Below are positions 934 through 64,000 of a stretch of 64,000 nt of DNA, one piece after another. The notes beneath the pieces are model-generated. The model was not told where the DNA came from, did not search any database, and worked only from the letters and a program-made list of their open reading frames with translations. Position 1 is the stretch's first letter; each line of letters begins with the position of its first letter. This DNA comes from a virus (taxonomy: Duplodnaviria; Heunggongvirae; Uroviricota; Caudoviricetes). Where the stretch lies: IMG/VR virus record IMGVR_UViG_3300011904_000029, positions 6,312 through 70,311 of that record. One strand, given 5' to 3'. The position numbers were made by a program, and so were the translations under genes.

Positions 934-2576
934 ATAATCTCCTCCTTATATTCTCCATTATAGTATTTCTCCATTGAAAATCTGTCGTCCTTTATCTGCA
1001 CTCTATATGAATTTAATTTGCTTTTTATGTATTCATATTTCTCTTTATCGGTTGCTATATGGTAAGGAACAACAATTAGTTTAATCCCCAATTCATTGCA
1101 TAGTTTTTTCTTTAATCTATCTCTTCTTTTACTTTCTTCAAATTCTGAATAGTGTTTGTGAAAGTACTCTATATATCTATAATGCTGTTCTCCGTTATAT
1201 TCTAGTGCAACTCTTAATTCTTCGTTGTACATATCTAGTTCAAGGTAATTTTTAATACCATTATACTTATTATTTAATAGCGTTCTGTTTTTGTAAAACA
1301 CTTTATTTGTAAGTTTTTCTATAATGAATTTGCATTTTGTTTCATTTTTAAATCTGCCAGTACAAATTTGACACCAAGTACCTGAAAACACGCTATCTAG
1401 ATTTAACTCGAATATATGATCATTCGCACACACCCATTGTAGTAACTGCTTAGAATCAGTGTAATACTCATAAGGTGTTAAAAGCTTCCCGTGATTTTTT
1501 TCTAGAAAAGAAAGTATTCTTTCATAAGGAATTCTCCTTTCGTCTAAGGTACATTCTTTACAGCTTCTCATTCCCTTAAAATTACCTGCGGAGCATTCCC
1601 AATTATGATTATTAGGGCATAAAAACCTATACTTTTTAAATTGACCTTTGTATTCACTCGGAGTAGACAGTAGTTTATAACCCCTATCTACGGCAACTTT
1701 TTTTAACCTATAATACTCCAATATTCCCCTCTTATTATCATTACACTCTCTACACCATCTTTCATCTTTGCGAACCAAGTCATTAGCACTACGATCAAAT
1801 ATATGACCTCTGCCACATATCAACTTAACTCTGGTTGTACTATCTAAAAGTGTATGATTTTTTGTCAACACTTGACCACCTTTATATCTAGCCATCCGTT
1901 TAATATTCACCCATGATAACTTCTGTATTATTTTAGGACTAATCTTTGTCTCAACCAGTCTTCTTTTTTCATCTTCTTTACATTGACTACACCACGTTGC
2001 ACCAAATTTTATATTGTAAAATGAATCCTCCCATACGTGCCCATTTTCACATTTCCATAAAAGAATATCTTTTTGATTTCCTTTATAACTTTCTGATAGG
2101 CACTCACCACCTTTATTTCTTGCAAACTCTTTAACTTCTTCAATTGTATGTCTCAATTTTTGAAGATAGCATTCGTAACACCAATATCCAGACTTTAAGT
2201 TATTTAGGTTTATTTCATATTTGTGTCTCTCTCCACAAACTATCTTCAATTTCGTGTGTGCATTTTCGTAATCCTCTTTAGGAGACAATACTTCTCCACC
2301 TTTTGAACTCACTATTTCACAGAATTCGTTGTAATATTTTGTTATCAGTTTTTCTTTGTTGTTTTCTTTCCTACATTCTGGGCATCCTTTAATTTGCTTA
2401 AAAGATCCCCACGATGTTTTAAGCTCTCCATGTTTTAAACAACTGTATTTTACTACCCATTTATTACTGCCATTAAATTTCTCCCAAGAATGATTAACAT
2501 ATTTAAGACCAACACCGTTACACACATCAATGATTTTGTCTTTTTTAAGACGGGGAGCACCCACTCTCATAAGCAA
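930..2576 (-). CDS. free-standing homing-endonuclease-like protein: tandem zinc-ribbon repeats plus C-terminal PD-(D/E)XK-like nuclease module (paralog family 1 of 3)
   Basis: 548 aa; about six repeats of the pattern C-x2-C ... W-x-C-x-N/E-G-H; C-terminal LEYNGEQHY...RD..K...C.ELGIKLIVVPY block shared with ORFs 13736..14569 and 43898..45400; sits between DHFR and thymidylate synthase genes. Confidence 0.55.
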   Translation of the reverse strand: MLMRVGAPRLKKDKIIDVCNGVGLKYVNHSWEKFNGSNKWVVKYSCLKHGELKTSWGSFKQIKGCPECRKENNKEKLITKYYNEFCEIVSSKGGEVLSPKEDYENAHTKLKIVCGERHKYEINLNNLKSGYWCYECYLQKLRHTIEEVKEFARNKGGECLSESYKGNQKDILLWKCENGHVWEDSFYNIKFGATWCSQCKEDEKRRLVETKISPKIIQKLSWVNIKRMARYKGGQVLTKNHTLLDSTTRVKLICGRGHIFDRSANDLVRKDERWCRECNDNKRGILEYYRLKKVAVDRGYKLLSTPSEYKGQFKKYRFLCPNNHNWECSAGNFKGMRSCKECTLDERRIPYERILSFLEKNHGKLLTPYEYYTDSKQLLQWVCANDHIFELNLDSVFSGTWCQICTGRFKNETKCKFIIEKLTNKVFYKNRTLLNNKYNGIKNYLELDMYNEELRVALEYNGEQHYRYIEYFHKHYSEFEESKRRDRLKKKLCNELGIKLIVVPYHIATDKEKYEYIKSKLNSYRVQIKDDRFSMEKYYNGEYKEEII

Positions 2577-2591
2577 ATAACTCCCCCGATT

Positions 2592-3377
2592 CTATATGCT
2601 CACACGCATTTTAATATGCGGATGATATTTGTAATCTAGTAATTTGACATCTTGTTCAGTAAAGTTATAAAAGTTATTAATCTCGGTATTAATAAATAAT
2701 TCAGGAGCCTTATAGGGCTCACGATTAAATATTTCTTGAATTGGTTTAAATTGCTGCTCATACAAATGAGCGTTGGTAAGAACAAATATCATTTTACCTG
2801 GTTTTAATTTTGTTACTTGCGCCAACATATGATTTAATACTGCCATCTGAGCAACATTGAAAGGCAAACCAAGCGCAACATCTGAGCTACGAATTGTTAC
2901 GTGCGTATTGAGATGATCATTGTTCACATCCCATATTGAATTAAACATACATGGAGTTAATTGCATCTTATCTAAATCTTCACATTGCCACAGGTTTACC
3001 ATCATTCTTCTTGATTGATTATTATATTTGAGATCGCTGATAAGTTTATCCATTTGACTATGCTTTTCAACTTGTCTTCCATATGCCTCGCCAATAGTAT
3101 TAAATTCGTCTGTCCACTCGTCCCAAATATGAATATTTCTTTCTTGCAGCCATGTTACATCATTTGATTGAATCTGATATATCCATCTCATCTCATTTAC
3201 TAATGACTTGAAAGGTGTGTATTTTAAAGTTAACATTGGGAACTCTTCTTGCAGATCGACAGTGATCACCTTTCCAAAAACTTTTTTTGTATTGTCTGCC
3301 GTTCTATTTTCTCCATAATATCCGTTGTCTAAGATATCTTTGACTAAAACTCTATACTGTAAATCAAAATTACTCAT
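2592..3377 (-). CDS. thyA: thymidylate synthase
   Basis: 261 aa; FPMLTLKYTPFKSLVNEMRWIY, IHIWDEW, LTPCMFNSIW (catalytic Cys region) typical of ThyA family; adjacent to DHFR. Confidence 0.85.
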   Translation of the reverse strand: MSNFDLQYRVLVKDILDNGYYGENRTADNTKKVFGKVITVDLQEEFPMLTLKYTPFKSLVNEMRWIYQIQSNDVTWLQERNIHIWDEWTDEFNTIGEAYGRQVEKHSQMDKLISDLKYNNQSRRMMVNLWQCEDLDKMQLTPCMFNSIWDVNNDHLNTHVTIRSSDVALGLPFNVAQMAVLNHMLAQVTKLKPGKMIFVLTNAHLYEQQFKPIQEIFNREPYKAPELFINTEINNFYNFTEQDVKLLDYKYHPHIKMRVSI

Positions 3378-3402
3378 ATATCCATCCTCCTGTATTTATA
3401 AT

Positions 3403-3430
3403 AAAAGGTAAGAGGAATCAACCTCTTACC
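3403..3430 (-). terminator. intrinsic terminator (9-bp GC-containing stem GGTAAGAGG / CCTCTTACC, 6-nt loop, followed by U-tract on minus strand)
   Basis: perfect inverted repeat 3407-3415/3422-3430, plus-strand AAAA at 3403-3406 gives UUUUAUU on minus strand; lies between upstream small gene and thyA. Confidence 0.55.
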
Positions 3431-3433
3431 TAG

Positions 3434-3462
3434 ATAATACTAATTTATTTCATTAATGTCAA
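3434..3462 (-). promoter_or_regulatory. sigma-A-type promoter TTGACA-17-TATTAT (member of conserved promoter family)
   Basis: minus-strand reading TTGACAttaatgAAATAAATtagTATTAT; -35 at 3457-3462, -10 at 3434-3439. Confidence 0.55.
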
Positions 3463-3670
3463 TGATTATTTATAATTTATTTAATAAATTCGTTATTTTA
3501 TTTTTGGTTTTTTGATTGATGCTTTAATCTTACTTCCTAGCCAGACAAAAGTAATCTCAGTCTTTGGATTAGATCCAATATGTTCAACTTGACCAAACTT
3601 TCTAGGAATCAATGACCATAAAATAAGAGCTACTTTACCCAATTGCCACTCACCTCACTTTTATTCCGAA

Positions 3671-3895
3671 CTACGCATGAAATTCGCTATTAAAACCCAT
3701 CGACTTATAAACCCTCTTTAGTTGTTCATAAGTCATCACATCAATCGTATTTTGTAGTAACTCACGCAATTCTCTTTCTTTCAGTACTTCCAATTTTTCA
3801 AAGGATTGACTGCCGCAGCCACGGCATTTTTCACCAACATACTGCTCTCTTCCGCATCCGAGACAGCAATAATTTTTAGGCTTACTTTTATACAA
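3671..3895 (-). CDS. small zinc-ribbon protein
   Basis: 74 aa with CxxC...CxxC (CLGCG...CRGCG). Confidence 0.4.
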   Translation of the reverse strand: MYKSKPKNYCCLGCGREQYVGEKCRGCGSQSFEKLEVLKERELRELLQNTIDVMTYEQLKRVYKSMGFNSEFHA

Positions 3896-3951
3896 ATTTA
3901 CACACCCCCTTTACTTCACAGTCGTATCTTATACACAATAAATTATCTGCT

Positions 3952-4668
3952 TTATCGTTTAGATTGTCTTTCAATCTCAGCTTTCAATTTCGGTTCTGGT
4001 GGAGTCCATCCTTCAGGCTTAATGATTTTTCCGTCACTTTCTCTGAATTTAGGTTGTCCATTATGAAGTTTTGCCATATTAGCATCTTGAACAATTTTAA
4101 ATAGATTAAATGGCTTTACCCCTAAAATAGTAAATGATCCCTGGTTGAAGTATTCAACATCAGTAAGCGCATCTGCTTGAGCAGTAAGAATGTCATCAAC
4201 TGGCTTTGCTTCTGTAACTTGCTTTTCTACTGCTGCGGAAATACCACTATTAAATTCATCGACTAACTTCTTAAATTCTTCTGTATTGCCACCTACGGTA
4301 GCATATAATAATTCCACTAATTCTTCCCCTGTCCACACAGCGCGGTTTAGTGCCGTTTCTTTATCCATAGGTGTTGGTTTTTCGTTGTAAGGATGGTTGA
4401 ATGCTTTGTGAAATTCCTGCACCATCCAATACATCTCATTAGGATTGTATTTTTTAGTTCTTCTTTTAGGTTTGCGATAGGGTGAAAGGTATTTGGTTTC
4501 TACATTTCTTAACTCAGTAACTCGTCTTTGCTTTTCTCTATCAAACTCAAGAATGAATTCAACTTGTGCTGTTTTACCCATATCTCTACTAAATGAAATA
4601 AGCTTCCCTTTTCTTTTACTTGATTTATCCCAAACCAGGCTGTTTAGTTGTAGTTTTTGATTTTGCAT
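3952..4668 (-). CDS. MazG-like all-alpha nucleoside triphosphate pyrophosphohydrolase (putative)
   Basis: 238 aa; segment WMVQEFHKAFNHPY...TGEELVELLYATVGGN resembles MazG/HisE EExxE-type metal-binding helix; located in nucleotide-metabolism cluster. Confidence 0.4.
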   Translation of the reverse strand: MQNQKLQLNSLVWDKSSKRKGKLISFSRDMGKTAQVEFILEFDREKQRRVTELRNVETKYLSPYRKPKRRTKKYNPNEMYWMVQEFHKAFNHPYNEKPTPMDKETALNRAVWTGEELVELLYATVGGNTEEFKKLVDEFNSGISAAVEKQVTEAKPVDDILTAQADALTDVEYFNQGSFTILGVKPFNLFKIVQDANMAKLHNGQPKFRESDGKIIKPEGWTPPEPKLKAEIERQSKR

Positions 4669-4738
4669 TAGTATATTTCCCCTTTGTATGTAAATTTATT
4701 TTAGATAAGAGAGGAGAATTAACTCCGCTCTATGTGTA

Positions 4739-4987
4739 TTAATTTAATTTATTAATGATCTCGTCTAATCCGTTTGGATTAAAGCCAACTACACGCTGTA
4801 CCTCTTCATCATTGTCATCAATAAGGATAGTTACTGGAACTGAACCAATATCATATTGGGCTGCAATTTCTGGATTATCCATTGGATTAATTTTTTCAAC
4901 AATCACACCTTTGTCATCTAGATAATTTTGAACCATTTGACATGGTTTACAACCTGGTAGCTCAAATTTAAATAGTTTATTAGACAT
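4739..4987 (-). CDS. nrdH: thioredoxin/NrdH-like redoxin
   Basis: 82 aa with CKPC redox motif near N-terminus; immediately upstream gene order redoxin-NrdI-NrdF-NrdE. Confidence 0.55.
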   Translation of the reverse strand: MSNKLFKFELPGCKPCQMVQNYLDDKGVIVEKINPMDNPEIAAQYDIGSVPVTILIDDNDEEVQRVVGFNPNGLDEIINKLN

Positions 4988-5405: not shown

Positions 5406-6468
5406 GAGTATAGTTAATTGCGTTAGCTTGGAGAAAATCTGTTCTTGTTACAATTTCATCTTCTCCTCCTGTTCTCTTTTTGCTTCCATATGTAGCAATC
5501 CATCTTGACTTTAATTCTTGGTTTTCAGGATAAGGTTCTTCGAGTCCTGCGTTTCTACAGATTAAGTTGGCTAGATATTCCACGTAATCATGATATTCTT
5601 TAATGGATAAAGTATCTATTCCTTCAAAAATGTAACTAGCCCATACTTTTTCTCGTTTAACAGCCTCTTTTATATAATCCATAACATAATTATAATTATC
5701 TTTTGTGGCTAACTGCGGCTCTTCTTTCATTAGAATTTGAATCAGCATTCCATAAAAAGTCGAGTGCATATTTTCGTCAGTCCGAATCATAGAAATTAAG
5801 TTATTAGAGCCAATCATTTTTTGATCCCTTGCCAGAGAGTGGAAATAAACAAATCCCCCACTAAAATAAATTCCCTCTAAGACAAGGTTAGCTACGATTC
5901 CATAAAGAATATCTTGAAGTACCTCATTAGAAACTCCACCTTCATCTTGTTCAGCCATATATATCTTCGCAGCATCGACCATTTTTTGAATCGGATCAAT
6001 TACAAGTTGATTCCTATACACTAATTCAGGAATATTTCTTGTAAATTCAAATGCTTGCTCCTTCTCTTGTTGATTTAATACAGTGGACGTTAAGTATTGA
6101 TAACTTCGATTATGCAATTGTTCAAATGATGCAATCATAGAAATTACCGATCTAACTGATGAATCGGTGCATAAATAACCTAAAACAAAATTAAAGTCTG
6201 TTGCAATAGAATCTAACCAGTTTAATTTACCTGATATAATGTTATATACTTGTCTTTCTCTTGGCGTAAGTTTTTCTCTATACTCCTCAATATCCTTAGA
6301 CAGTTTCACCTCATCTTCTATCCAGTACTCTGCAAATAAAGACTTATTAAAATCGAGCATTGTAGGATACTTGATATTATCCCAATCTCGTATCCCACTT
6401 GATTTCCCCCCAAACACTTTTGTTGCTACGTTGCTTGCTTCTCCATCGTAAATCCGAAAGTTTGCCAT
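5377..6468 (-). CDS. nrdF: ribonucleotide reductase class Ib beta subunit
   Basis: 363 aa; diiron ligand region LVLEGIYFSGGF...IRTDENMHSTFYG, acidic C-terminus ...ESGEDFDL. Confidence 0.85.
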   Translation of the reverse strand: MANFRIYDGEASNVATKVFGGKSSGIRDWDNIKYPTMLDFNKSLFAEYWIEDEVKLSKDIEEYREKLTPRERQVYNIISGKLNWLDSIATDFNFVLGYLCTDSSVRSVISMIASFEQLHNRSYQYLTSTVLNQQEKEQAFEFTRNIPELVYRNQLVIDPIQKMVDAAKIYMAEQDEGGVSNEVLQDILYGIVANLVLEGIYFSGGFVYFHSLARDQKMIGSNNLISMIRTDENMHSTFYGMLIQILMKEEPQLATKDNYNYVMDYIKEAVKREKVWASYIFEGIDTLSIKEYHDYVEYLANLICRNAGLEEPYPENQELKSRWIATYGSKKRTGGEDEIVTRTDFLQANAINYTHESGEDFDL

Positions 6469-13735: not shown

Positions 13736-14569
13736 TTAATTTAAGCTTATATTTAATTTACTTATGTACTCATTAATTAAATCTCCGACTCTACTAAATT
13801 CTGTGTATGGGATACGTAAAATTGAAATTCCATTTTCTTTGCAGAATGCATCTTTTCTATCATCTCTTTCTAAAACATAATCAAGAGTATTTTTAAAAAG
13901 CTCTCTTTCCTCGAAATGATGTATTCCATCATATTCAATAATAAACAAAACATTTCCATTTATATCATAAATTACAAAATCAAAGAACATTGATTCCCCA
14001 CTATTATTTTTATAATGAACCTCACGATCATATGTCACTCCTAAAGACTCCAAATGGTCAATCACTTCTTTTTCACCTAGAGAAAAATGACAATATTTAC
14101 ATCTTATGCCACTGCGTAAGTTACTAAGGAGCATTTCTGTCCTATGACCATTATTGCACACAACAGTCATTTTTTTGTGTGAGTTGACATATTCCCCTAT
14201 TCTCTTATATCCAATTGACTCAAGAAAACTGTCAACTTCCTTAATTGAAAATCTTTGTTGTACACTACTCTTTTGCAACCAACATTTTCTACATCTAACT
14301 CCTTTTAAAAAATGACTCCAATATATTTCAATTTCATGACCAGCGCTACACTTTACTTTTATTTTGGACTTAGAGTCCTTATAGCTATCTGATATAAGAA
14401 TATAATTTTCTTTTTCTAACTCCTCATTTATAAGATTAATACTCCAATTTGTTTTTCCTTTTCCATTCTTATCTTCTTTTTTGCAACTGGAGCACCTTCT
14501 TCCATTTTTATATTTTTGAAATGTCACTTTCCAATCATGCCCATAAGGGCATCTAACTATAATAGGCAC
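13736..14569 (-). CDS. zinc-ribbon / PD-(D/E)XK-like homing endonuclease paralog (family 2 of 3); annotated from GTG but frame stays open upstream to 14850
   Basis: 277 aa from GTG; C-terminal IEYDGIHHFEE...RDDRKDAFCKENGISILRIPY block shared with 930..2576 and 43898..45400; upstream in-frame extension encodes further CxxC...GH repeats. Confidence 0.5.
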   Translation of the reverse strand: MPIIVRCPYGHDWKVTFQKYKNGRRCSSCKKEDKNGKGKTNWSINLINEELEKENYILISDSYKDSKSKIKVKCSAGHEIEIYWSHFLKGVRCRKCWLQKSSVQQRFSIKEVDSFLESIGYKRIGEYVNSHKKMTVVCNNGHRTEMLLSNLRSGIRCKYCHFSLGEKEVIDHLESLGVTYDREVHYKNNSGESMFFDFVIYDINGNVLFIIEYDGIHHFEERELFKNTLDYVLERDDRKDAFCKENGISILRIPYTEFSRVGDLINEYISKLNISLN

Positions 14570-14853
14570 ATTACTATTGACAAAATCACTGACCAGTTCA
14601 TAGCCATCTTTCTCAAGACTTTTTACAACTTCGTGCTTTGTGATTTTAACCCTATTACTACAACGAGGACACCTTCTTCCTGATTTAAATTTTGAAAAGG
14701 AAGCTTCATATTGATGACCTTTTTCGCATCTTAATACGAGTTTTTCTGTGCTATTTTTATACTCATCGGAAACTAGTCTATACCCGATATTTTCTATATA
14801 CTCTTTAATATCTTTATATGCTAATCTTACCCCATGATTATGACCTTCTCCCT

Positions 14854-15570
14854 TTAATTTAAAATTTCAATTTTTAATTTCTTCCTTCCCCATTGCCAAA
14901 CTCTATCCCTATCAGCAATATATAAGTCTAGTATTTTACCTTTTATTGCTCCTCCACGATCTTGGCAAATTCTTGTCCCTACACTCTCAATGTTAATTTT
15001 TGTACCAAATGGAATATGTGGTGGGCAAGCAATAGTTACGCCTTCTTGAACATAAGCTCCACTTGCAGTTTTTCCATAACCTTTATCACCAGGACTCTTG
15101 CCAGTTGACTCATATCCAGCATGGTAAGCAGTAACTTCATAATAATCAACTTTACCAGATGAGTGACTACTTTTATTTGAGCCACTCATATTAGGGCCTG
15201 TATTGCTTTTACTCGTGTTAACACTACTAATGCTTAATCTATTAACCTTATCTTTTAGCCTATGTATTTCATCATCTTTAACTTTAATCTTTTTCCTTAA
15301 ATCTTCATTATTTTTATTTAATTCATTATTATCTTCCTTTAACCCTTTAATTTCTCCTCGCTGCTTTTCCAATTGACTGTTCTTATTGTAAACCTGATCC
15401 ATCAAAACCCTTTTATTTTTCTCTAGCTCATCAATCTCTTTCTGCTTATCTCCAATTGTCTTATTCATATCGTCCACTTTGTTTTCATATTTTACGACTG
15501 TATTCACATTTGCTCCAATCGCAACAGTTAAAGCAAGAGATATGAATATTGCCTTTTGATTAAAATTCAT
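14854..15570 (-). CDS. secreted coiled-coil protein with C-terminal 3D (MltA-like) cell-wall domain
   Basis: 238 aa; N-terminal signal/TM segment, long Lys/Glu-rich coiled coil, C-terminal YYEVTAYHAGYESTG...GKILDLYIADRD 3D-domain signature. Confidence 0.5.
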   Translation of the reverse strand: MNFNQKAIFISLALTVAIGANVNTVVKYENKVDDMNKTIGDKQKEIDELEKNKRVLMDQVYNKNSQLEKQRGEIKGLKEDNNELNKNNEDLRKKIKVKDDEIHRLKDKVNRLSISSVNTSKSNTGPNMSGSNKSSHSSGKVDYYEVTAYHAGYESTGKSPGDKGYGKTASGAYVQEGVTIACPPHIPFGTKINIESVGTRICQDRGGAIKGKILDLYIADRDRVWQWGRKKLKIEILN

Positions 15571-15671: not shown

Positions 15672-16916
15672 TTATTTAACATTTAATAGTTGCTGAAATA
15701 ATGCTTCACAAACATTAATAACTATACTATTACCAGTCATGCGATAGAGTCTTGTCTTTGACCTGTCTCTGCCTTTGTAAAACTTATCATTTACTGCTTT
15801 TCTTGCCACTTCGTAATCCCTATCAGTGAAACCCATTAGCCTAAACGCCTCCTTGTTGGTCATTTCCCTAATGAACAAATATTCTCCCTCTGCAATCAAG
15901 TCATCCTCACTCTTGACCAACTTGTATCCATCATCTATTTTTACGGCAAGCTTTAGTCCTTTTATTTGAGTTTTTGACACATTTTCTAATAACTCACTCA
16001 GTTCAATAGGATTTTTTTTATTAAAAATAGCTACCATAAAATCCTTAGTCACAGTCGTCACCGTATTACTTACGTCATCTTTTCTAATCTCCAGTTGTTG
16101 AGGCTGTCCCATATAGCTTCTTGTCCTTAAACTACAGCCCTTAACAATTCTTCTGTCCAAGACAACGTTATATGGAACCCCTTTAGACATATTGGCTGTT
16201 AAACATCTACTAGCATCATGGTCAGAGTCACTATGGTGCTCAAAATCCCAATGGGTTCTACCACCTTTTGTTTTTCTATTCATATACTCGATTGCTTTTT
16301 CAGTATGTATATGATTTTTTAATATATCTAAATCTGTTTCCAATTTATCTGAGAGTGATTTTTGATTAGGCATTGGCTCAGGGAAATCGAATCCTTTATC
16401 AATATCTTTACGAATACTAATCATAAAGATGCGCTCTCTATTTTGAGGAATTCCAAAATCACGAGCATTTAATATTTGCCAGTAGTTGTTATATCCTGCT
16501 TTTTCTAATTCCTCTTGCATTTCTTTAAACTCATTTTCAAACTTTTTACTTGTTAGTCCTTTTACATTTTCCATTAATGCATATTTTGGACTCTTAGCTC
16601 GGATAATTCTGAGAGCATCAAAAAACAATATCCCTCTATGATCATCAAACCCCAATTGTTTACCAGCTGCCGACCATGATTGACATGGTGGAGAGTAGCA
16701 AATAACATCGCAATCCGGTACATCTTCAATGTTTAATGTAGTTATATCCGTAGCAGGAAAATTTGTATTATGTATTGAATTATAGGCGGTAATCGCAAAT
16801 TCATCATTTTCAACTGCTAAAACTGTTTCATGTTCTATATTAAGATTTTCAAGTGATTTTTTCCAGGCTCCTATTCCTGCAAATAATTCAACTACTTTTA
16901 ATTTACCAATAAGAAA
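15672..16916 (-). CDS. DNA (cytosine-5)-methyltransferase (full-length frame; 5-prime end lacks canonical start / apparent frameshift)
   Basis: open frame encodes motif I VELFAGIGAW, motif IV CYSPPCQSWS, motif VI ENV (ALMENVKGL), motif VIII QNRERIFMI; ORF-track call 15672..16655 starts after motif IV at an internal TTG. Confidence 0.75.
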   Translation of the reverse strand, partial: FLIGKLKVVELFAGIGAWKKSLENLNIEHETVLAVENDEFAITAYNSIHNTNFPATDITTLNIEDVPDCDVICYSPPCQSWSAAGKQLGFDDHRGILFFDALRIIRAKSPKYALMENVKGLTSKKFENEFKEMQEELEKAGYNNYWQILNARDFGIPQNRERIFMISIRKDIDKGFDFPEPMPNQKSLSDKLETDLDILKNHIHTEKAIEYMNRKTKGGRTHWDFEHHSDSDHDASRCLTANMSKGVPYNVVLDRRIVKGCSLRTRSYMGQPQQLEIRKDDVSNTVTTVTKDFMVAIFNKKNPIELSELLENVSKTQIKGLKLAVKIDDGYKLVKSEDDLIAEGEYLFIREMTNKEAFRLMGFTDRDYEVARKAVNDKFYKGRDRSKTRLYRMTGNSIVINVCEALFQQLLNVK

Positions 16917-18859: not shown

Positions 18860-21154
18860 TTAAGCTGTCAATAACTCCACCTCTTCTTTTTCCATCCAGT
18901 TTGTTTCCGTTATTTCTAAGTCAACCACAACTGGAACTTTCATCCATTTTACATCTTCCATAATTTTCTTAATATAAGGGAAAATCCACTCCTCTCCTTC
19001 ATATACTAAAAATTGTAGTTCGTCATGAATATTTGCTAATGGAAGTGTTTTGCAATTATGTTTACGTAGGAACTCGCCAATCTCTACTACATAACTTTTT
19101 AATAGATCAGCACAAGAGCCTTGTACTAAATAGTTCCCAACTTTATATGCTTTTTCCGTGTCAGATAAATAATAAACTCTTCCATACATGTTTGTAGCGA
19201 AGTTGTCTTTTTGAATCTTCTTTGAAACTTCTCTTTGGTACCTTGCTACTTCTGGAAAAGTATTAGACCACCCAGTGACAAGAGCGTTTGCTACTTCCAT
19301 TGAAACTTCAAGAGATTCAGAAGCTTTTTTTGCTCCACCACCGTAATTCCGCATAAAGTTAAAAGTTTTTCCGATATTTCTCCAATATCCTCTAAAAGTT
19401 TTCTCGTCAATTATTGGCTTTTCATTATGTGAGTATTTCTTATATTTTTCTTCTGTAACATATTTCAATGCTTCTAATGCATTATGAGTAGTTTCGCTAT
19501 GTACATCGGTTGGAGTCCAATGGGTACCGTCTTCTTGTATCCAAGCAGATTTTCCTTCTGGAGTTTTTTCTGACCACCTTTTACGATCAGCATCATTCTC
19601 AAATTGATACATTTCACCTGTTAAATAATGTTTGCAGTACAGTGGCATATAAGCTCTGCATAAATTTAAATCAGGTTTTCCTAATAACACACTGTAATTG
19701 GCCTGTGCTCTCAATTCAATCTGGGAAAGGTCAAAATAGGCAATTTTACTATATTTTCCACCTCGTACTACAAATGCCCTCCTGGGAGAAAATATCTCCA
19801 TTTCTATTGGTGCTTTCCCTTCCCCATGCTCTTTTTCATATTTTTCTCCTTCTTCAGTTAAAATTCTTTCTTTAGGAAATTGTTGTGCATCTGATCCCAA
19901 TCTTCCTGAGACAGTGTTAAATTGTCCATACTGGGTATAAAAGTTTCCATCATACTCTGCAACTTCCATAATCCTTGAAATATATGTAGATTGCCATTTT
20001 TCTAGACGCCTTAGCCTCGTTATAATTTGTGCAACTCGGTTATCTTTGTGTTTTTTTAAAAACGCCTTATCAGTAGAACCTATTACTTCTCCTGTAATTT
20101 TTTCAAAGTATTCTCCTATTACTTTGCTTTGTGAGACAGTAAAATACTCTCCTACAATTTCCCACATTTCCTCGTATAACTTTTGGATTTCTTGATCACA
20201 TTTTACAAAAGAATCCTGTAAATAATCCATATTTACAGTCATTCCTACACGTTCCATTCTTAATAATTCCATTAACAATTTATTTTCTTGTTGAAAAAGT
20301 TTTTGTTGTTTTCGTTGTAAAATGTTTATATAAAACTTTTCTACAATTTCTAATGTATAAATTCCGTCACTATGAACATATTCCATCATTACATTTTTAT
20401 CTACTTCTGAATAGTTTGCAAAAGGATGTTCTTCCATCCACCTAAAATAAGCTTCTTCTACTTCTTTTGGAACTTCCAGCCATCTTTGCTTACGTTCTTT
20501 TGTAAACATATCCATATCATTGCGTTTTTTGACTTTATAGGCTTCTTTTAATTTCCCTATGCCCCATCCCAGTTCTTTTAATATCTCCTTTAGGATATTT
20601 CGTTTTTGGTCATTTATTTTTCTTAATTCCTTCTTTACCTCAGATTCAAATTCTGCTGCTCTTTCATCAATGTACTTTTCTGAAACCTTTTTTAGCCCTA
20701 ATAAATCTCCACCATCTCTAGCTGAAACTGCATCGAATGAAAATCTACAAATTCCCATTGTGTCAGAAATATTTGAGAGATTGAAAACTTCCTCTTCTGG
20801 TATCCCCCCATTAATCATCATATGGAGATCGAATTTTGTGTTGTGCCCCACTGCCATTTGAAATTTTTTTATAAGCTCTACAACTTGTTTCAATATTTCT
20901 GTACCATGTTCAAATGCAAACACTCTTCCCTTAAAATTTTCCTTTTGTTTTTGTTTAGGTAAAAGCCAGCCAAATACCCACATAAACGGTTTATCTTTTT
21001 TAATATGTAATCCTGTAGTTTCCGAGTCAAATACACAAAGCTTTGGATTATCTTCATAAAAATAATTATTTATTTCACTAAAACTTGTTACCCAGTATTT
21101 CTTATATTTAAATGTTACTTCAGTTTCTAGTTTAGGAGAGATTAATATAACTTT
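18860..21154 (-). CDS. family A DNA polymerase with 3-prime-5-prime exonuclease domain (true start upstream of track ORF; no canonical start codon in frame)
   Basis: motif A YFDLSQIELRAQ, motif B RNIGKTFNFMRNYGGG, motif C LANIHDELQF; Exo II HNTKFDLHMM; Exo I VFDSETTGL lies in frame upstream of the track start 20983, frame open to 21154. Confidence 0.8.
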   Translation of the reverse strand, partial: KVILISPKLETEVTFKYKKYWVTSFSEINNYFYEDNPKLCVFDSETTGLHIKKDKPFMWVFGWLLPKQKQKENFKGRVFAFEHGTEILKQVVELIKKFQMAVGHNTKFDLHMMINGGIPEEEVFNLSNISDTMGICRFSFDAVSARDGGDLLGLKKVSEKYIDERAAEFESEVKKELRKINDQKRNILKEILKELGWGIGKLKEAYKVKKRNDMDMFTKERKQRWLEVPKEVEEAYFRWMEEHPFANYSEVDKNVMMEYVHSDGIYTLEIVEKFYINILQRKQQKLFQQENKLLMELLRMERVGMTVNMDYLQDSFVKCDQEIQKLYEEMWEIVGEYFTVSQSKVIGEYFEKITGEVIGSTDKAFLKKHKDNRVAQIITRLRRLEKWQSTYISRIMEVAEYDGNFYTQYGQFNTVSGRLGSDAQQFPKERILTEEGEKYEKEHGEGKAPIEMEIFSPRRAFVVRGGKYSKIAYFDLSQIELRAQANYSVLLGKPDLNLCRAYMPLYCKHYLTGEMYQFENDADRKRWSEKTPEGKSAWIQEDGTHWTPTDVHSETTHNALEALKYVTEEKYKKYSHNEKPIIDEKTFRGYWRNIGKTFNFMRNYGGGAKKASESLEVSMEVANALVTGWSNTFPEVARYQREVSKKIQKDNFATNMYGRVYYLSDTEKAYKVGNYLVQGSCADLLKSYVVEIGEFLRKHNCKTLPLANIHDELQFLVYEGEEWIFPYIKKIMEDVKWMKVPVVVDLEITETNWMEKEEVELLTA

Positions 21155-21165
21155 TCACCCCTTTA

Positions 21166-22866
21166 TTAAAAATACAAAACATCATTTATTTTCATTTTTA
21201 CTATTTCTATTTGAGGAATTTGCTTTCCATCCCAATTATTAATTTTAAACCTTCCTACTATATCCATGTAAAAAGTTTCTCCTTCAGAAAAATAGGATTC
21301 GAAAAGATCTTTTTTAAAGTAAAGTTTAATAAATTCAATGCAACTGTTATGTATCATTTTAAGATTCTTAACTCTCTTACCTACTAGACTAATATTTTCT
21401 ATTTGAAATCTAACATCTTTAATAGCAAACTCTGGTTCTTTTAAAACCGACCCCCATTCATCTCTGTACGATGCAATCTCAGTTATTAAATCTTTGTCAA
21501 GGTCACCTTCTTCTAAAATAAAATCAACTTCATAACTGTCTAAATCAATTTCATCTTTAAGATTTTCTTCAAAATATGAATGTAGTTTAGGTATTTCAGC
21601 TTCTTCAATTTCAACTCCAAATGCATTGGGGTGTCCTTCGCATAACTTAAATAATTTTGATCCGATAAGAAATTTTTTAAAATCTTTTATTTCGCCTTGT
21701 TCAAAACCTCTGGCAGATCCTCCATATAAGGATTCTTTTAGTTTTCGCAACAAAATAACTGGTCTTTTATATTTTTTTGCAATTTGATTGGCTGCAAGAC
21801 CTGTAAAGTTTTTATCCATTAAGTCTGTTACATCAATAATTAAAGCTTTCATTTTTAATAAATTCTTTTTTACAACGTATTCTTCAATACTTACTAAACC
21901 CTTATCTTTAGCTTTATTTTGCCTTGCTCTGGTATTTGTTGCAGCTCTTACTGTAGCAACCTGAATAGGTTCGTACTCATTTTTCCGTTTATAAAATAGC
22001 ATATCCTTTGATTCTAAAAAGGATTTCATCATATTGTTTTTCTCTTGTGCTGTTGAAGCTCGTACAATTGCATTTATCAATGGAACAACGTAAAAAGCCA
22101 CATTATGTATATTTACGATTCCTTTCATAGAAAAATCTTGTTTAAAAATAATTTCTTTTATAAAAGGGTTTTTAATTTTCTCTAACCCCTTTTTTACATA
22201 ATACCGTGTCTCTAATTCCCTTAGATCCATCATGTCACCAACATTGCCAATTGCTACTAAATCTAGAAAATCGTCTGCATAGGATTCAGAAAACTTCTCG
22301 TCCAAGGCTTGGCAAAATTTATATACAATTCCTGCACCTGATAAATTTTTATTTAAGTATTGAGGAGAAAGTTGGTTATTTACAATAATCGCATGTTCAG
22401 ATTCCTTTTCACATTCATGATGATCCAAAACAATAACATCTATTCCTTTTTGATTTAACTCTAAATGTTCCTTTTCTTGATTGGAGCCAGCATCAGGAAT
22501 AATTACAAGCGATACATCGTTTGGAACATTTTTTAGAGCAATTCCATGTTGCTTACCAGTCTGAAGACTCCAAACAATATTTACATTGGGATTAATTCTT
22601 CTAAGATAATTTATTAAAATAGCTGCTGAACAATAACCATCACAATCACTATCGACTTGTACAAAAATTTTATTATTTTCTTTCATATGTTTAACTAGAC
22701 ATTTTACAGCCCTGTCTATATTTTTTAAATATTTGTAGGGGATAATATGTTGTTTTCCAACGTTTAGTATTTCTTCAATATTTTCTGGAGCAACACCTCT
22801 ATTCCTAAATATTGTTCCAATAGGATCAAGATTAAAATTGTTTTCACCAATCAGTTTAAAGTTCAA
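21166..22866 (-). CDS. RecJ-like DHH-family single-strand DNA exonuclease
   Basis: 566 aa; DHH motifs VDSDCDGYCS, IIPDAGSN, VLDHHE. Confidence 0.65.
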   Translation of the reverse strand: MNFKLIGENNFNLDPIGTIFRNRGVAPENIEEILNVGKQHIIPYKYLKNIDRAVKCLVKHMKENNKIFVQVDSDCDGYCSAAILINYLRRINPNVNIVWSLQTGKQHGIALKNVPNDVSLVIIPDAGSNQEKEHLELNQKGIDVIVLDHHECEKESEHAIIVNNQLSPQYLNKNLSGAGIVYKFCQALDEKFSESYADDFLDLVAIGNVGDMMDLRELETRYYVKKGLEKIKNPFIKEIIFKQDFSMKGIVNIHNVAFYVVPLINAIVRASTAQEKNNMMKSFLESKDMLFYKRKNEYEPIQVATVRAATNTRARQNKAKDKGLVSIEEYVVKKNLLKMKALIIDVTDLMDKNFTGLAANQIAKKYKRPVILLRKLKESLYGGSARGFEQGEIKDFKKFLIGSKLFKLCEGHPNAFGVEIEEAEIPKLHSYFEENLKDEIDLDSYEVDFILEEGDLDKDLITEIASYRDEWGSVLKEPEFAIKDVRFQIENISLVGKRVKNLKMIHNSCIEFIKLYFKKDLFESYFSEGETFYMDIVGRFKINNWDGKQIPQIEIVKMKINDVLYF

Positions 22867-22881
22867 TTTATTCCTCCTTCA

Positions 22882-23943
22882 TCAATTTATTTTATAAATG
22901 TAATCATTGTAAAGCTTTATCCAGACTTCTTTACCTTTGTCACAGGGCGAGTCTTTTTCATTGAGTAAATTCCCCTTATCAAAAATTACATAACGCAGTC
23001 TGCCTTTTAATTTACTTACCTCGTCAATAATAAAAGCTGTATCTTTATCTTTATCCCAAGCGAATATGAATTTAACCTTTAGACCTAAGTCTTTTAATAA
23101 ACGTATTTGGTGATCTGAAAGACTGTCTCCTTCGATACTAATCACATTTTTGTACCCCCATTGGTATAAAAGCATTACAGTTTTTGCACCCTCTACAATA
23201 ATTACTTCTTGTTTTTTCTTGATTTCGGGCAATGCTCTATGTAGATTGAAGAATTCAATAGATTTGTTGCAGGGCACAAGATAAAGATATTTATACTTAT
23301 CCTCAATTTCCTGATTTTTACCACAGTACCTACCTTTTACCCCAATTAAATCCCCTTGTTTATTGTGTATTGGGAAAGTGATTCTATCACTCAGAACATC
23401 TATACCAACATTAAAATATCTTTGTGTACTTGTGGAGATACCTTCTTTAACCCACCCAAGGTAAGGAATATTCCCAAAGTATTTTAAAATATGTAATGGT
23501 TTGATTTCATTTTCTAATGTTTGAGTCATAGTTTCTTTGTCAATTTTCTTTAACCACTCATTATAACTCGGTTTTACTCTTGTTTCTTCTGCTGTATCTT
23601 TATAAAAATCATCAATAAATTCAAAATACCCTAATTTGTTACATAGCCAATATTTACTTTTGGATAAGTATTCCAGACGCTTTTCAGCCGTAACACCTTC
23701 AAAAATTATATAACTTACAATATCGAAAATACTGCCTTCTATTCCTCGAGATCTTATATGACTCGATAGGTTTTCATTGTTCTTAACTTGCACACTTCGT
23801 TTGTTTTCTCCGTCCGGAAGACCTGCTACATATAGTTTGCCATTTTGCTCAGTATCAATTCCCCAACAACCTAACAATATTAGCACTTCGTCTATTCTTT
23901 TTTCTTTATAGATTCTTAATTTAATTTGCTGAAGGTCAGTCAA
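22882..23943 (-). CDS. DnaG-like DNA primase (TOPRIM domain)
   Basis: 353 aa; VIIVEGAKTVMLL ... ISIEGDSLSD ... FAWDKDKD TOPRIM acidic motifs. Confidence 0.5.
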   Translation of the reverse strand: MTDLQQIKLRIYKEKRIDEVLILLGCWGIDTEQNGKLYVAGLPDGENKRSVQVKNNENLSSHIRSRGIEGSIFDIVSYIIFEGVTAEKRLEYLSKSKYWLCNKLGYFEFIDDFYKDTAEETRVKPSYNEWLKKIDKETMTQTLENEIKPLHILKYFGNIPYLGWVKEGISTSTQRYFNVGIDVLSDRITFPIHNKQGDLIGVKGRYCGKNQEIEDKYKYLYLVPCNKSIEFFNLHRALPEIKKKQEVIIVEGAKTVMLLYQWGYKNVISIEGDSLSDHQIRLLKDLGLKVKFIFAWDKDKDTAFIIDEVSKLKGRLRYVIFDKGNLLNEKDSPCDKGKEVWIKLYNDYIYKIN

Positions 23944-61006: not shown

Positions 61007-63964
61007 TTAAACTACCTTCTGAGTATTCCATTGAATGTAGCTTTTGCCTTCTTCATCTTTTTCTTTAATTAGAAGCATGTTTAAAATATCAAAATCAACT
61101 CCAAACCTTTCTAAGATTTCATCATCATCTATGGAATCATTTTTCATAAAGTTGTTTAGTTTCTCTTTATTCATAATCAACTTAAGTAAATTAGACTCAA
61201 TACTGTTTCTAATTGTTAAAAAGTGTATTTCTTTTTGCTCTGTAGAGGTATATCTTATAAACCTTGCAAAAAACTGATGCATTGCTGCAAAGTTCCATTG
61301 TAGCTCAATAAGTAATACACGGTTCACAAAATCAATATTCATGCTGCTTGATAAAGATTGTTGAGTACAAATAAGTATTCCATTTTTTGTTTCTTTTAGT
61401 TTCTTTATTATCTCTTTTCTCTTGCTCAATGTTGTGCTGTCACCAGTAATTATAAACAATGGCCTTTCAGGGAATTTGTTTTTAATATAACTTGCATACA
61501 TATTAACTGTTTTAATGTGAGTACACCCTATTACAACATGCTCGTTATCCCATTCATGAAGCATATTAACCATTTCAATTGCTTTGGAAGGTGTTTGACT
61601 TGAATAGTAATCTTTAAAGATATTAGGTGTTACACATGCTTTTAACAGGCTGTTAAGTTGTTGTATAATCCTCAACAAAGCATCTTTTCTGCTGTTCCCT
61701 GTTGATCTGTACATATGAGTGAGTTTATAGAATTCTTCAATTACAATTCTATAAAGTTCTTTTTCAGCATGGTTAAACTCTGTTGTTTTCTGTATGATTT
61801 TATAAATATTCTTGCCGCTAACCTCTTCAAATGTTCGAGTTATCATTGTTTTATTAATTAGTTCGCTTAATTCTTCACTGTTATATATATCTTGATTCAT
61901 TTTCCCTACACCAAATACTGTTGCTTTCTCCGGTGAAAATGATCTTTTAAAATGTGTATGGCCTTTCTTATATGCAGGAAACGGCCACATATAAAATTTA
62001 TTAAATTCCTCCTTAATCTCTTTTGTCTTTTTATCCTCAATAAATATAATGTCATTCTTTGACAGCATATTAACTGAATTATTATAGAGCAATTCAAATG
62101 CTGTAAACGATTCTGGAATGTTATTTCTGGTACTTGTAGCACTCATAAGCAATTTAAACTTAACTCTTCTAAAACAGTTTAAAATGGCCTTTGTACGTTT
62201 AGATGATGGATTACAAATACCATCTGCTTCATCTAGTACCAACATAACTTTTTGACTTTGCATTTTTACAAACTTTTTAATTTGCTTTTGATATTTAGTT
62301 ATCATTCCAAAAGTCATAATTACTATTTGTCCATGTTTAATATTGTCAATATCTTTAAGTGATTTGATCCTAATAAAATCTATATCGTATGCCTTTAGAA
62401 TTTCGTCCCAATTGTTATTAATTGCAATTGCAGGTGCAATAAGGAATATATTTCTAATGCTGTTATGCTGCTTTCTATATAACATCTGTGCAATGGCCGA
62501 TAAACTTTTCCCTGCTCCTGTTCCCCATTGCAGATAACCATAATTTTTAGATAGCATTTTTATTGTATCTTCTTTTTGAATATTATTTAGTTTAATCTCC
62601 TGGCTATTTTCTTTATCATAAATCACCAAGTTTTCAAGAAAAGATTTTATTTTTTCGTCTTGTTTTATATTTTTAAATGAGCAATTCTGCTTCTGATATT
62701 CCTTGCTTTTCTTTTCAAATAATTTTATATACTTATGATCTTGAAAAGGATAGTTATCATTAATAATCATGTCATTAAAGCTTATCTCTTTGACTCCATT
62801 ATATGATTTTAAAAATTTTCTCTCCTTTGTGCTGTATGCTTTTAGCTTCAGACCATAGCGATTTTTTACAAGTCTTGTTATATGAACTTCTGGTTTTTTA
62901 TGCTGCTTTTTTAAAGTGTTTTTAAGATACCGAATAACTTTGTTTTTTGTTATCCTTACTTTCTGCCATTCCTCATAAGTCATTCCCTCTGGCTGCTCTT
63001 GTGTATAATACCTATTCAAATAGGCTTCACATTTAGAATAGTATTTATTGATTTTCGGATTACTCTTGATATCAAATAACAACTTATTTACTTTATAATG
63101 AAATTCATTTTCATCTTTATTTTGTGACATTGTTTCAAGAATAATTTTATTTTTAACTTGCTGCTTTTCATCAAGAATTGGTTTTATGTAATTGTTATAA
63201 ATATAATTTGATTCTGATTCAATTATTTCTAGCGATTTTATAGTATTGCTTTTATATGGCCTCTCTGTTACATGTTCGCTCTTTTTCTGGAAAAACATAA
63301 TCTTTGTTTCAAAATTATTGACCCCGACATGATTAAATGAGTCTGAAGGCAAAGTGAATTGTGACACAAAATTGAACATCTTATTAATCTCTGTTATCAT
63401 TCCACCGTCTACAAAGTCATCGCTTAGAAAGGATCTAGGTACAATTAATGCCATGATCCCACCAGGTTTTAATACTTCATATGATTTAATACAATAATAC
63501 AGTTGACTTAAATATTCATCATTTCCAACATCCCATTTTAAATTAAATGGTGGATTCCCTAAAACAATGTCAAACTGGATATCAGTTTTATAATTTCTAA
63601 TATCTTGATTTGTTATATTTGCATGTGGATATAAGTATTTTGAAACTTTATAAGCCTTTATATCTAATTCATTGCCATATACATTTAACTCGTTTGGAAG
63701 ATAGTTAAAAAAGTTACCCATCCCACTTGTTAAATCAATAATTAAATCATGCTCATTAGGTTTTAAACAGTCTATAAGAAATTTAGAAATTGTATGAGAT
63801 GTAAAGAATTGACCATTTTCTAATTCCTTTTTGGCTTCTGTATAATCATGAAAAGATGAATAGTCTTTAAAATCTAACCCATGCAGCCCACCATCACCAG
63901 TATAAGAATTAAATATATCCTCTTTTGAAATATTGTGTTGATCACATAAGTTATTATCAATCAA
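61007..63964 (-). CDS. N6-adenine DNA methyltransferase fused to SF2 (DEAD-box-type) helicase
   Basis: 985 aa; N-terminal amino-MTase motifs FFTSHTISKFLID, DLTSGMGNFF (motif I) and NPPFN (motif IV); C-terminal helicase motifs GTGAGKS (Walker A), LVLDEAD (motif II), LMSATS (motif III). Confidence 0.75.
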   Translation of the reverse strand: MIDNNLCDQHNISKEDIFNSYTGDGGLHGLDFKDYSSFHDYTEAKKELENGQFFTSHTISKFLIDCLKPNEHDLIIDLTSGMGNFFNYLPNELNVYGNELDIKAYKVSKYLYPHANITNQDIRNYKTDIQFDIVLGNPPFNLKWDVGNDEYLSQLYYCIKSYEVLKPGGIMALIVPRSFLSDDFVDGGMITEINKMFNFVSQFTLPSDSFNHVGVNNFETKIMFFQKKSEHVTERPYKSNTIKSLEIIESESNYIYNNYIKPILDEKQQVKNKIILETMSQNKDENEFHYKVNKLLFDIKSNPKINKYYSKCEAYLNRYYTQEQPEGMTYEEWQKVRITKNKVIRYLKNTLKKQHKKPEVHITRLVKNRYGLKLKAYSTKERKFLKSYNGVKEISFNDMIINDNYPFQDHKYIKLFEKKSKEYQKQNCSFKNIKQDEKIKSFLENLVIYDKENSQEIKLNNIQKEDTIKMLSKNYGYLQWGTGAGKSLSAIAQMLYRKQHNSIRNIFLIAPAIAINNNWDEILKAYDIDFIRIKSLKDIDNIKHGQIVIMTFGMITKYQKQIKKFVKMQSQKVMLVLDEADGICNPSSKRTKAILNCFRRVKFKLLMSATSTRNNIPESFTAFELLYNNSVNMLSKNDIIFIEDKKTKEIKEEFNKFYMWPFPAYKKGHTHFKRSFSPEKATVFGVGKMNQDIYNSEELSELINKTMITRTFEEVSGKNIYKIIQKTTEFNHAEKELYRIVIEEFYKLTHMYRSTGNSRKDALLRIIQQLNSLLKACVTPNIFKDYYSSQTPSKAIEMVNMLHEWDNEHVVIGCTHIKTVNMYASYIKNKFPERPLFIITGDSTTLSKRKEIIKKLKETKNGILICTQQSLSSSMNIDFVNRVLLIELQWNFAAMHQFFARFIRYTSTEQKEIHFLTIRNSIESNLLKLIMNKEKLNNFMKNDSIDDDEILERFGVDFDILNMLLIKEKDEEGKSYIQWNTQKVV

Positions 63965-64000
63965 ATATAAAATTTTATCGTTTATCTCCTTCCTGTTCTC

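Follow-up and report, generated by a model that had tools for sequence, protein, structure and literature searches.

The DNA analyzed here is a stretch of 64,000 nucleotides (nt), hereafter the window, taken from IMG/VR virus record IMGVR_UViG_3300011904_000029 (positions 6,312 to 70,311; Caudoviricetes). It carries a family A DNA polymerase gene within an element that is, by sequence, an SPbeta-like Bacillus-type prophage. We propose that this polymerase is translated from a near-cognate AUA codon (21148-21146, minus strand) behind a strong Shine-Dalgarno (SD) sequence, a reading to which we give a probability of roughly 0.74. Five features can be seen directly, namely the codon, the SD, the homologous position, the recurrence in a second lineage and an intact, conserved set of 55 N-terminal codons. 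Standard gene callers accept only ATG, GTG and TTG as start codons, and the public records of the enzyme are therefore truncated, to 707 aa for the window and to 561 aa for a homolog from Alkalihalobacillus. For the window polymerase, the public calls begin at ATG 20983 and most likely cut off 55 residues that include the catalytic proofreading motif. AUA starts behind strong SDs are already known in Bacillales and biologically ordinary; what is new is the proposed case in the polymerase of an SPbeta-like prophage.

Start region of the polymerase gene

The window is AT-rich (~32% G+C), and all genes in the polymerase region lie on the minus strand. The features around the polymerase start are as follows, with exonuclease motif I abbreviated as Exo I.

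22866..21166, minus strand: RecJ-like (YorK-like) gene with DHH and RecJ_OB domains
21166..21168, minus strand: TAA stop of the RecJ-like gene, 17 nt before the ATA
21155..21164, minus strand: Shine-Dalgarno sequence AAAGGGGTGA, containing the out-of-frame GTG 21158-21156 and the in-frame TGA 21157-21155
21152..21155, minus strand: AAAA run forming the end of the SD and the SD-to-start spacer, identical in three assemblies
21146..21148, minus strand: ATA, proposed near-cognate initiation codon, at the homologous start position and with the best SD among the candidates of this open reading frame (ORF)
21020..21028, minus strand: Exo I motif D41-S-E43 (GAC TCG GAA; GAC at 21028-21026, GAA at 21022-21020)
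20981..20983, minus strand: ATG (Met56), first canonical start, used by the public gene calls and probably not the real start
18860..21148, minus strand: family A DNA polymerase with a 3′-5′ exonuclease domain, proposed coding sequence of 762 codons from the ATA plus a stop

After the RecJ-like TAA (21168-21166) the strand reads TAAAGGGGTGAAAAGTT and then ATA TTA ATC TCT CCT AAA CTA GAA ACT. After a TGA at 21157-21155, the polymerase frame stays open from 21154 over 764 codons, up to the stop at 18862-18860. As a preliminary description of this sequence had stated, no ATG, GTG or TTG occurs in this frame before the ATG at 20983. The 57 codons preceding that ATG encode KVILISPKLETEVTFKYKKYWVTSFSEINNYFYEDNPKLCVFDSETTGLHIKKDKPF, in agreement with the sequence given there, and include VFDSETTG. 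The same description had noted a GTG (21158-21156) one base off the polymerase frame, and this too holds; the frame of that GTG ends after 8 codons.

The AAAGGGGTGA sequence forms 10 pairs with a B. subtilis-type 16S 3′ tail at -12.9 kcal/mol, compared with a mean of -11.8 kcal/mol over the 59 strong-SD genes of the window. The candidate starts compare as follows.

ATA 21148: -12.9 kcal/mol, spacing 9 nt, aligned with the start codons of homologs
ATG 20983: -1.5 kcal/mol, spacing 7 nt, without SD
GTG 21158: -3.2 kcal/mol, spacing -1, inside the SD

No close DNA relatives of the region came up when the phage collection was searched by megablast, and relatives were therefore gathered by protein search. 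Start-region DNA was sampled from the phages Goe11 and Goe14, four bacterial genomes, eight viral contigs and three contigs reached through exact protein look-ups. In 13 distinct loci, a TTG, GTG or ATG stands exactly four codons ahead of a conserved Pro-(Lys/Ser)-Leu-Glu-Thr, with an SD before each, and the window codon aligned with these canonical starts is ATA 21148-21146. For example, the window N-terminus (M)LISPKLETEVT matches that of homolog P0017 (locus L016), LLISPKLETEVT. Profile scans with the homolog alignment yielded mostly distant polymerases and two further useful close loci (L107 and L123), while pattern scans of metagenome and viral contigs with NNN at the start codon did not find the window start region elsewhere and yielded no independent population sample of this lineage.

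The start region, from the RecJ-like stop to the polymerase N-terminus, is base-identical in the Logan assembly of SRR1749974 and in NCBI GCA_032100165.1, which makes a substitution or an A-run error in the consensus unlikely at this site. The window equals the Logan assembly exactly over the 7.2 kb compared, start region included, and over the stretches compared it differs from GCA_032100165.1 at only two positions, both in the primase gene (23943..22882). At these positions GCA_032100165.1 (DAMDKB010000005.1) shows a T/C difference at 23335 and 3 rather than 4 bases in the C-run at 23337-23340. The shorter run splits its primase into calls of 201 aa and 131 aa; the window copy is intact.

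The preliminary description took the out-of-frame GTG at 21158 for the true start and the A-run for a frame break. In such a case, the polymerase frame would be reached within AAAA 21155-21152, either because the assembly holds one A too many or by +1 slippage on AAA-A. With one A fewer the GTG is indeed in frame (MKVILISPKLE...), and homopolymer differences between assemblies of the element do exist, as in the C-run above. We nevertheless find this very improbable. The GTG is itself part of the SD, with no second SD to serve it, its protein would extend 3 residues beyond the start aligned in every homologous locus examined, and the A-run is the same in all three assemblies. Near the start we found neither a stimulatory element nor a significant RNA structure, and in Alkalihalobacillus an ATA follows directly after an in-frame TAG, with neither GTG nor A-run (see below). 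Because homologs carry GAGGTGA, GGGTGA or AGGTGA at the site of the window GGGGTGA, the GTG is, on this comparison, a by-product of the SD consensus GGAGGTGA and not a start codon.

Initiation at the GTT 21151-21149, which would add one residue to the ATA product, has an even smaller chance of being right. GUU mismatches the initiator anticodon at two positions and belongs to a codon class that initiates at or below 0.1-1% of AUG in E. coli (bioRxiv 10.1101/063800). It aligns with the start of no homolog, and the second ATA locus (L023) has TAG in its place; in its favor stands a spacing of 6 nt, which is the mode of the window genes.

The polymerase and its proofreading domain

The protein is a proofreading family A polymerase, with predicted exonuclease activity and with Exo I upstream of the first ATG, because a PF00476 match, a Klenow-like fold and conserved Exo I, II and III residues all point to this assignment. 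PF00476 (DNA_pol_A) scores 147.2 bits against a cutoff of 34.3 (E 8.2e-43). The exonuclease family PF01612 (DNA_pol_A_exo1) covers residues 41-175 at 19.1 bits, below its gathering score of 23.6 (E 0.0012), and has a precomputed match on several close homologs. The motifs VFDSETTG, HNTKFD and YVHSD are all present in the window protein. Across an alignment of 59 sequences, the Exo I residues D41 and E43, the Exo II residue D107 and the Exo III residues Y257 and D261 are invariant, and N103 (Exo II) is nearly so, which bears out the earlier observation of an Exo I DxE upstream of the called Met.

An AlphaFold2 model built from 59 homologs has a mean predicted local distance difference test score of 93.1 and a predicted template modeling (TM) score of 0.90. 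Its top Foldseek match is the Klenow fragment 1kfs_A (E 5.6e-27; TM score 0.75, target-normalized; 791 alignment columns). A sequence search against solved structures aligned the polymerase domain alone, and the exonuclease domain needed the fold comparison. The window enzyme thus resembles the Klenow fragment of E. coli DNA polymerase I and the Bacillus fragment, which have a DEDDy-type exonuclease, in whole-length fold and in its Exo I-III residues. It differs from them in sequence, at ~18% identity, and in length, with extra insertions that bring it to 762 aa versus about 600.

The stretch upstream of ATG 20983 is, by sequence comparison, coding and not a chance opening. More than 50 homologs align with it, beginning at residue 1-3, at ~75% identity, homologs of 760-772 aa align to the window protein from residue 1, and the N-terminal 60 residues share 78% identity with homolog P0003, as does the whole protein. 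The earlier claim that the called ORF is truncated, with its true N-terminus upstream of 20983, is in line with these alignments.

If the public annotation were right, ATG 20983 would begin a 707-residue polymerase without Exo I and hence without proofreading. This is the first canonical start in frame and the call of the public sources, and we still consider it highly unlikely to be used. The ATG lacks an SD (-1.5 kcal/mol), and the 55 codons before it are open and conserved. Among the homologs, none was found to start genuinely at this point; P0059, which is called close to it, is the second ATA gene described below. In the model, D41 and E43 lie in strand 37-44, and a start at Met56 would drop strand 15-19, helix 24-33 and the catalytic strand 37-44. 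A product beginning there is predicted to be implausible because Met56 itself sits inside a beta-strand (54-62) of the exonuclease core. Without Exo I, the truncated record could pass for a non-proofreading enzyme or a pseudogene in surveys of phage polymerases.

Proposed AUA initiation and the less likely loss of the start codon

The homolog P0059, from Alkalihalobacillus sp. NPDC078783, is also called short in its NCBI record (561 aa). Its DNA was obtained as L023 (GCA_044901205.1) and in an independent Logan assembly, L024. In L023, GAAGGGAGGAAACTTAG is followed by ATA TTA ATC TCT CCT AAG TTA GAG ACT, and the first five codons (ATA TTA ATC TCT CCT) are identical in the two genes. Here an in-frame TAG abuts the ATA and there is neither a GTG nor an A-run, so that a frameshift explanation is unavailable in the Alkalihalobacillus lineage. 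Its SD, GGGAGG, lies 8 nt upstream of the ATA and pairs at -15.3 kcal/mol. The window and Alkalihalobacillus proteins are 69% identical, whereas the closest homologs with canonical starts share 78% with the former and 73% with the latter. Since each protein is closer to canonical-start homologs than to the other, the ATA, judged by these identities, occurs in two non-sister lineages. A shared recombination tract as the source of the identical first 15 nt is not supported: the first 60 nt are 82% identical, but other parts of the gene reach similar values, and the sequences upstream of the two genes differ. The SDs of the two ATA lineages are not stronger than those of canonical-start homologs (-12.9 and -15.3 versus -10.3 to -16.2 kcal/mol).

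A plausible mechanism runs as follows. The extended SD AAAGGGGUGA, with its core 9 nt before the AUA, would place the 30S P site on that codon. The AUA could be loaded by free 30S subunits or by ribosomes fresh from termination at the RecJ-like stop 17 nt upstream, and the latter may help initiation. The fMet-tRNA would then pair with AUA with a third-position mismatch, against which IF3 discriminates, and the full-length 762-residue polymerase (fMet-LISPKLETEV...) would be made at a fraction of the AUG rate. We infer that initiation does take place at the ATA and that its low efficiency would be tolerated or useful. No tRNA genes were found in the window, and a phage-encoded tRNA is therefore no explanation for AUA decoding. 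Folding of the RNA around the start also gave no significant structure; the minimum free energy fold pairs GGGG with CUCC at a z-score of +0.55 and is not common to L023.

Starts of this kind have precedents. In E. coli, infC and pcnB start at AUU. In S. aureus, infC, ccpN and citZ start at AUA and cvfC1 at AUU, all with extended SDs, and the AUA and AUU starts give ~10% of AUG expression in reporters, or up to 30% for ccpN in rich medium (PMC13009471). The non-canonical start of ccpN is kept in B. subtilis (PMC13009471). In E. coli, AUA, AUU, AUC and CUG reach 1-2% of AUG (bioRxiv 10.1101/063800). The window polymerase shares with the S. aureus AUA and AUU genes a near-cognate AUH codon where relatives have a canonical start, along with a long SD duplex at normal spacing. 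By analogy with the S. aureus and E. coli AUH genes, its initiation should be several-fold lower and sensitive to IF3. The S. aureus cases are host regulators, whereas the window gene is a prophage replicative polymerase; and unlike the known AUH starts, the ATA, from which initiation is here predicted, is conserved in two scattered lineages only and not family-wide.

An alternative is that the start codon has been knocked out. An ancestral ATG would have become ATA by a G-to-A transition in a prophage with no further need of a polymerase of its own, leaving a very young pseudogene with little or no protein. We judge this unlikely, although several observations agree with it and weigh against initiation at the AUA. 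Canonical starts are found in nearly all homologs, with ATA missing from the 13 other loci and present in one further non-sister lineage (L023/L024), that is, in only 2 lineages among roughly 50 homologs with an intact N-terminus. Public gene callers find no start there (P0001). The same prophage holds a frame-broken homing-endonuclease-like gene and a methyltransferase without a canonical start, and it sits in what is probably a metagenome-derived bacterial contig, a setting in which inactivating mutations are common. The nearest relative of the window gene in the databases searched is only 79% identical, and the ATA, taken in the window alone, could thus be a very recent knockout. Additionally, the 9 nt from the SD core to ATA 21148 is slightly above the usual 6-8 nt of window genes (range 1-18), and a non-start GTT stands at the modal spacing.

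Other evidence is difficult to reconcile with a dead gene. Nothing interrupts the remaining 762 codons, conservation at the N-terminus equals that of the rest, an isolate genome from a non-sister lineage has the same ATA behind a strong SD, and all three anomalies of the window lie at gene starts, unlike random decay. Even a knockout of this form would be leaky, given that AUA behind an extended SD gives ~10% expression in a related bacterium (PMC13009471). With the same codon in a second lineage and no other lesion in 762 codons, a working weak start appears more likely than a dead gene. The AUA reading would extend the short list of AUA-initiated Bacillales genes by one for phage replication; its main consequence is for annotation.

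Other gene starts and neighboring features

When all long ORFs of the window were scanned for leaders without a start, two cases besides the polymerase emerged. The first is a C5 DNA methyltransferase (16910..15672, minus strand), 4 kb from the polymerase. A TGA at 16919-16917 is in frame and is followed by TTT CTT ATT GGT AAA TTA AAA GTA GTT GAA TTA TTT GCA GGA ATA GGA, and the first canonical start comes only after motif I (FAGIG) and the PPCQ motif. In the alignment, the ATT at 16910 falls on the Met of homologs (M-x-K-L-K-V-V-E-L-F-A-G), which begin MTKLKVVELFAG or MLKLKVVELFSG, and it follows GGAGATGA (-10.2 kcal/mol, spacing 8). The public call is a truncated product of 300 aa (P0123). 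Judged by codon, SD and alignment, this ATT is the same pattern as the polymerase ATA, and it suggests that weak starts may limit the expression of DNA-acting prophage enzymes.

The second case is a homing-endonuclease-like gene (14866..13736, minus strand), in which ATG GGG TAA stands at 14835-14827 and the long ORF is one base off (CAT GGG GTA AGA...). This has the look of a genuine frame break of 1 nt, located in a G-run at the start, as if one G were missing, and so belongs with the observations that favor decay. No near-cognate start is available at this gene start, and the sequence in GCA_032100165.1 is identical. The gene has zinc-ribbon repeats and a DUF2726 match on the called product, and its homologs are annotated as HNH or homing endonucleases. 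That the three anomalies all lie at gene starts argues against random sequencing error or decay, and it is no proof of selection.

One possible hypothesis, which we hold only tentatively and think rather doubtful, is that AUH starts are a recurrent, selected throttle on the translation of DNA-acting enzymes in SPbeta-like prophages. It would account for the PolA ATA in two non-sister lineages together with the C5 methyltransferase ATT in the same element. If it were true, expression would be tied to IF3 activity or growth state, adding a translational layer to the control of prophage replication.

Among other methyltransferases, a large N6-methyltransferase-like ORF with an NPPF motif (64000..61007, minus strand) runs off the window end with its frame open to the edge. 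In its region 63964-64000, the strong SD AGGAAGGAGA (-12.2 kcal/mol) is followed by an in-frame ATT at 63973, and the first canonical start is a TTG without SD. A methyltransferase homolog that also lacks a canonical start is found at ~590-620 of L017 (IMGVR_UViG_3300020156_000002, a viral contig of 130 kb, SPbeta-sized), which reads TAG CCG ATC CAA AAA TTA AAG GTT..., with ATC at the start-equivalent position, no obvious SD and a match over residues 1-177 only. The closest homolog of the C5 methyltransferase (P0121, 657 aa, 69% identity) carries a Hint-domain (PF13403) insertion in its PPC(Q) motif, CYSPPC|FKAGTY...VHN|CQTFS. This looks like an intein in the catalytic motif, and the window copy is without it.

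The best phage relatives of the element are the SPbeta-like Bacillus phages vB_BsuS-Goe11, Goe12 and Goe14, with 72.5% protein identity in the polymerase over the N-terminal 432 residues. The DnaG primase, YorK (RecJ-like) and polymerase stand in the same order and orientation in the window and the Goe phages, with an SD in a RecJ-to-polymerase junction of 15-17 nt in both; such a tight junction is also present in prophage loci. The polymerase of Goe11, Goe12 and Goe14 starts with GTG, compared with ATA in the window. The full window order of helicase, primase, RecJ-like protein and PolA matches the PolA-type replication module of Spbetavirus (PMC11348598). The element is only ~72-79% related at the protein level to any known SPbeta-like member.

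The polymerase genes of many homologs appear to carry an insertion at a fixed site, probably an intron, where the window gene is uninterrupted. Homologs P0040-P0053 and P0059 are called short, ending just past a conserved ...GK(M/T)FNFMR and then continuing with unrelated residues. In L024, the region 2501-4186 is followed at 4461-4895 by a separate DNA_pol_A fragment of 144 aa, ~270 nt downstream.

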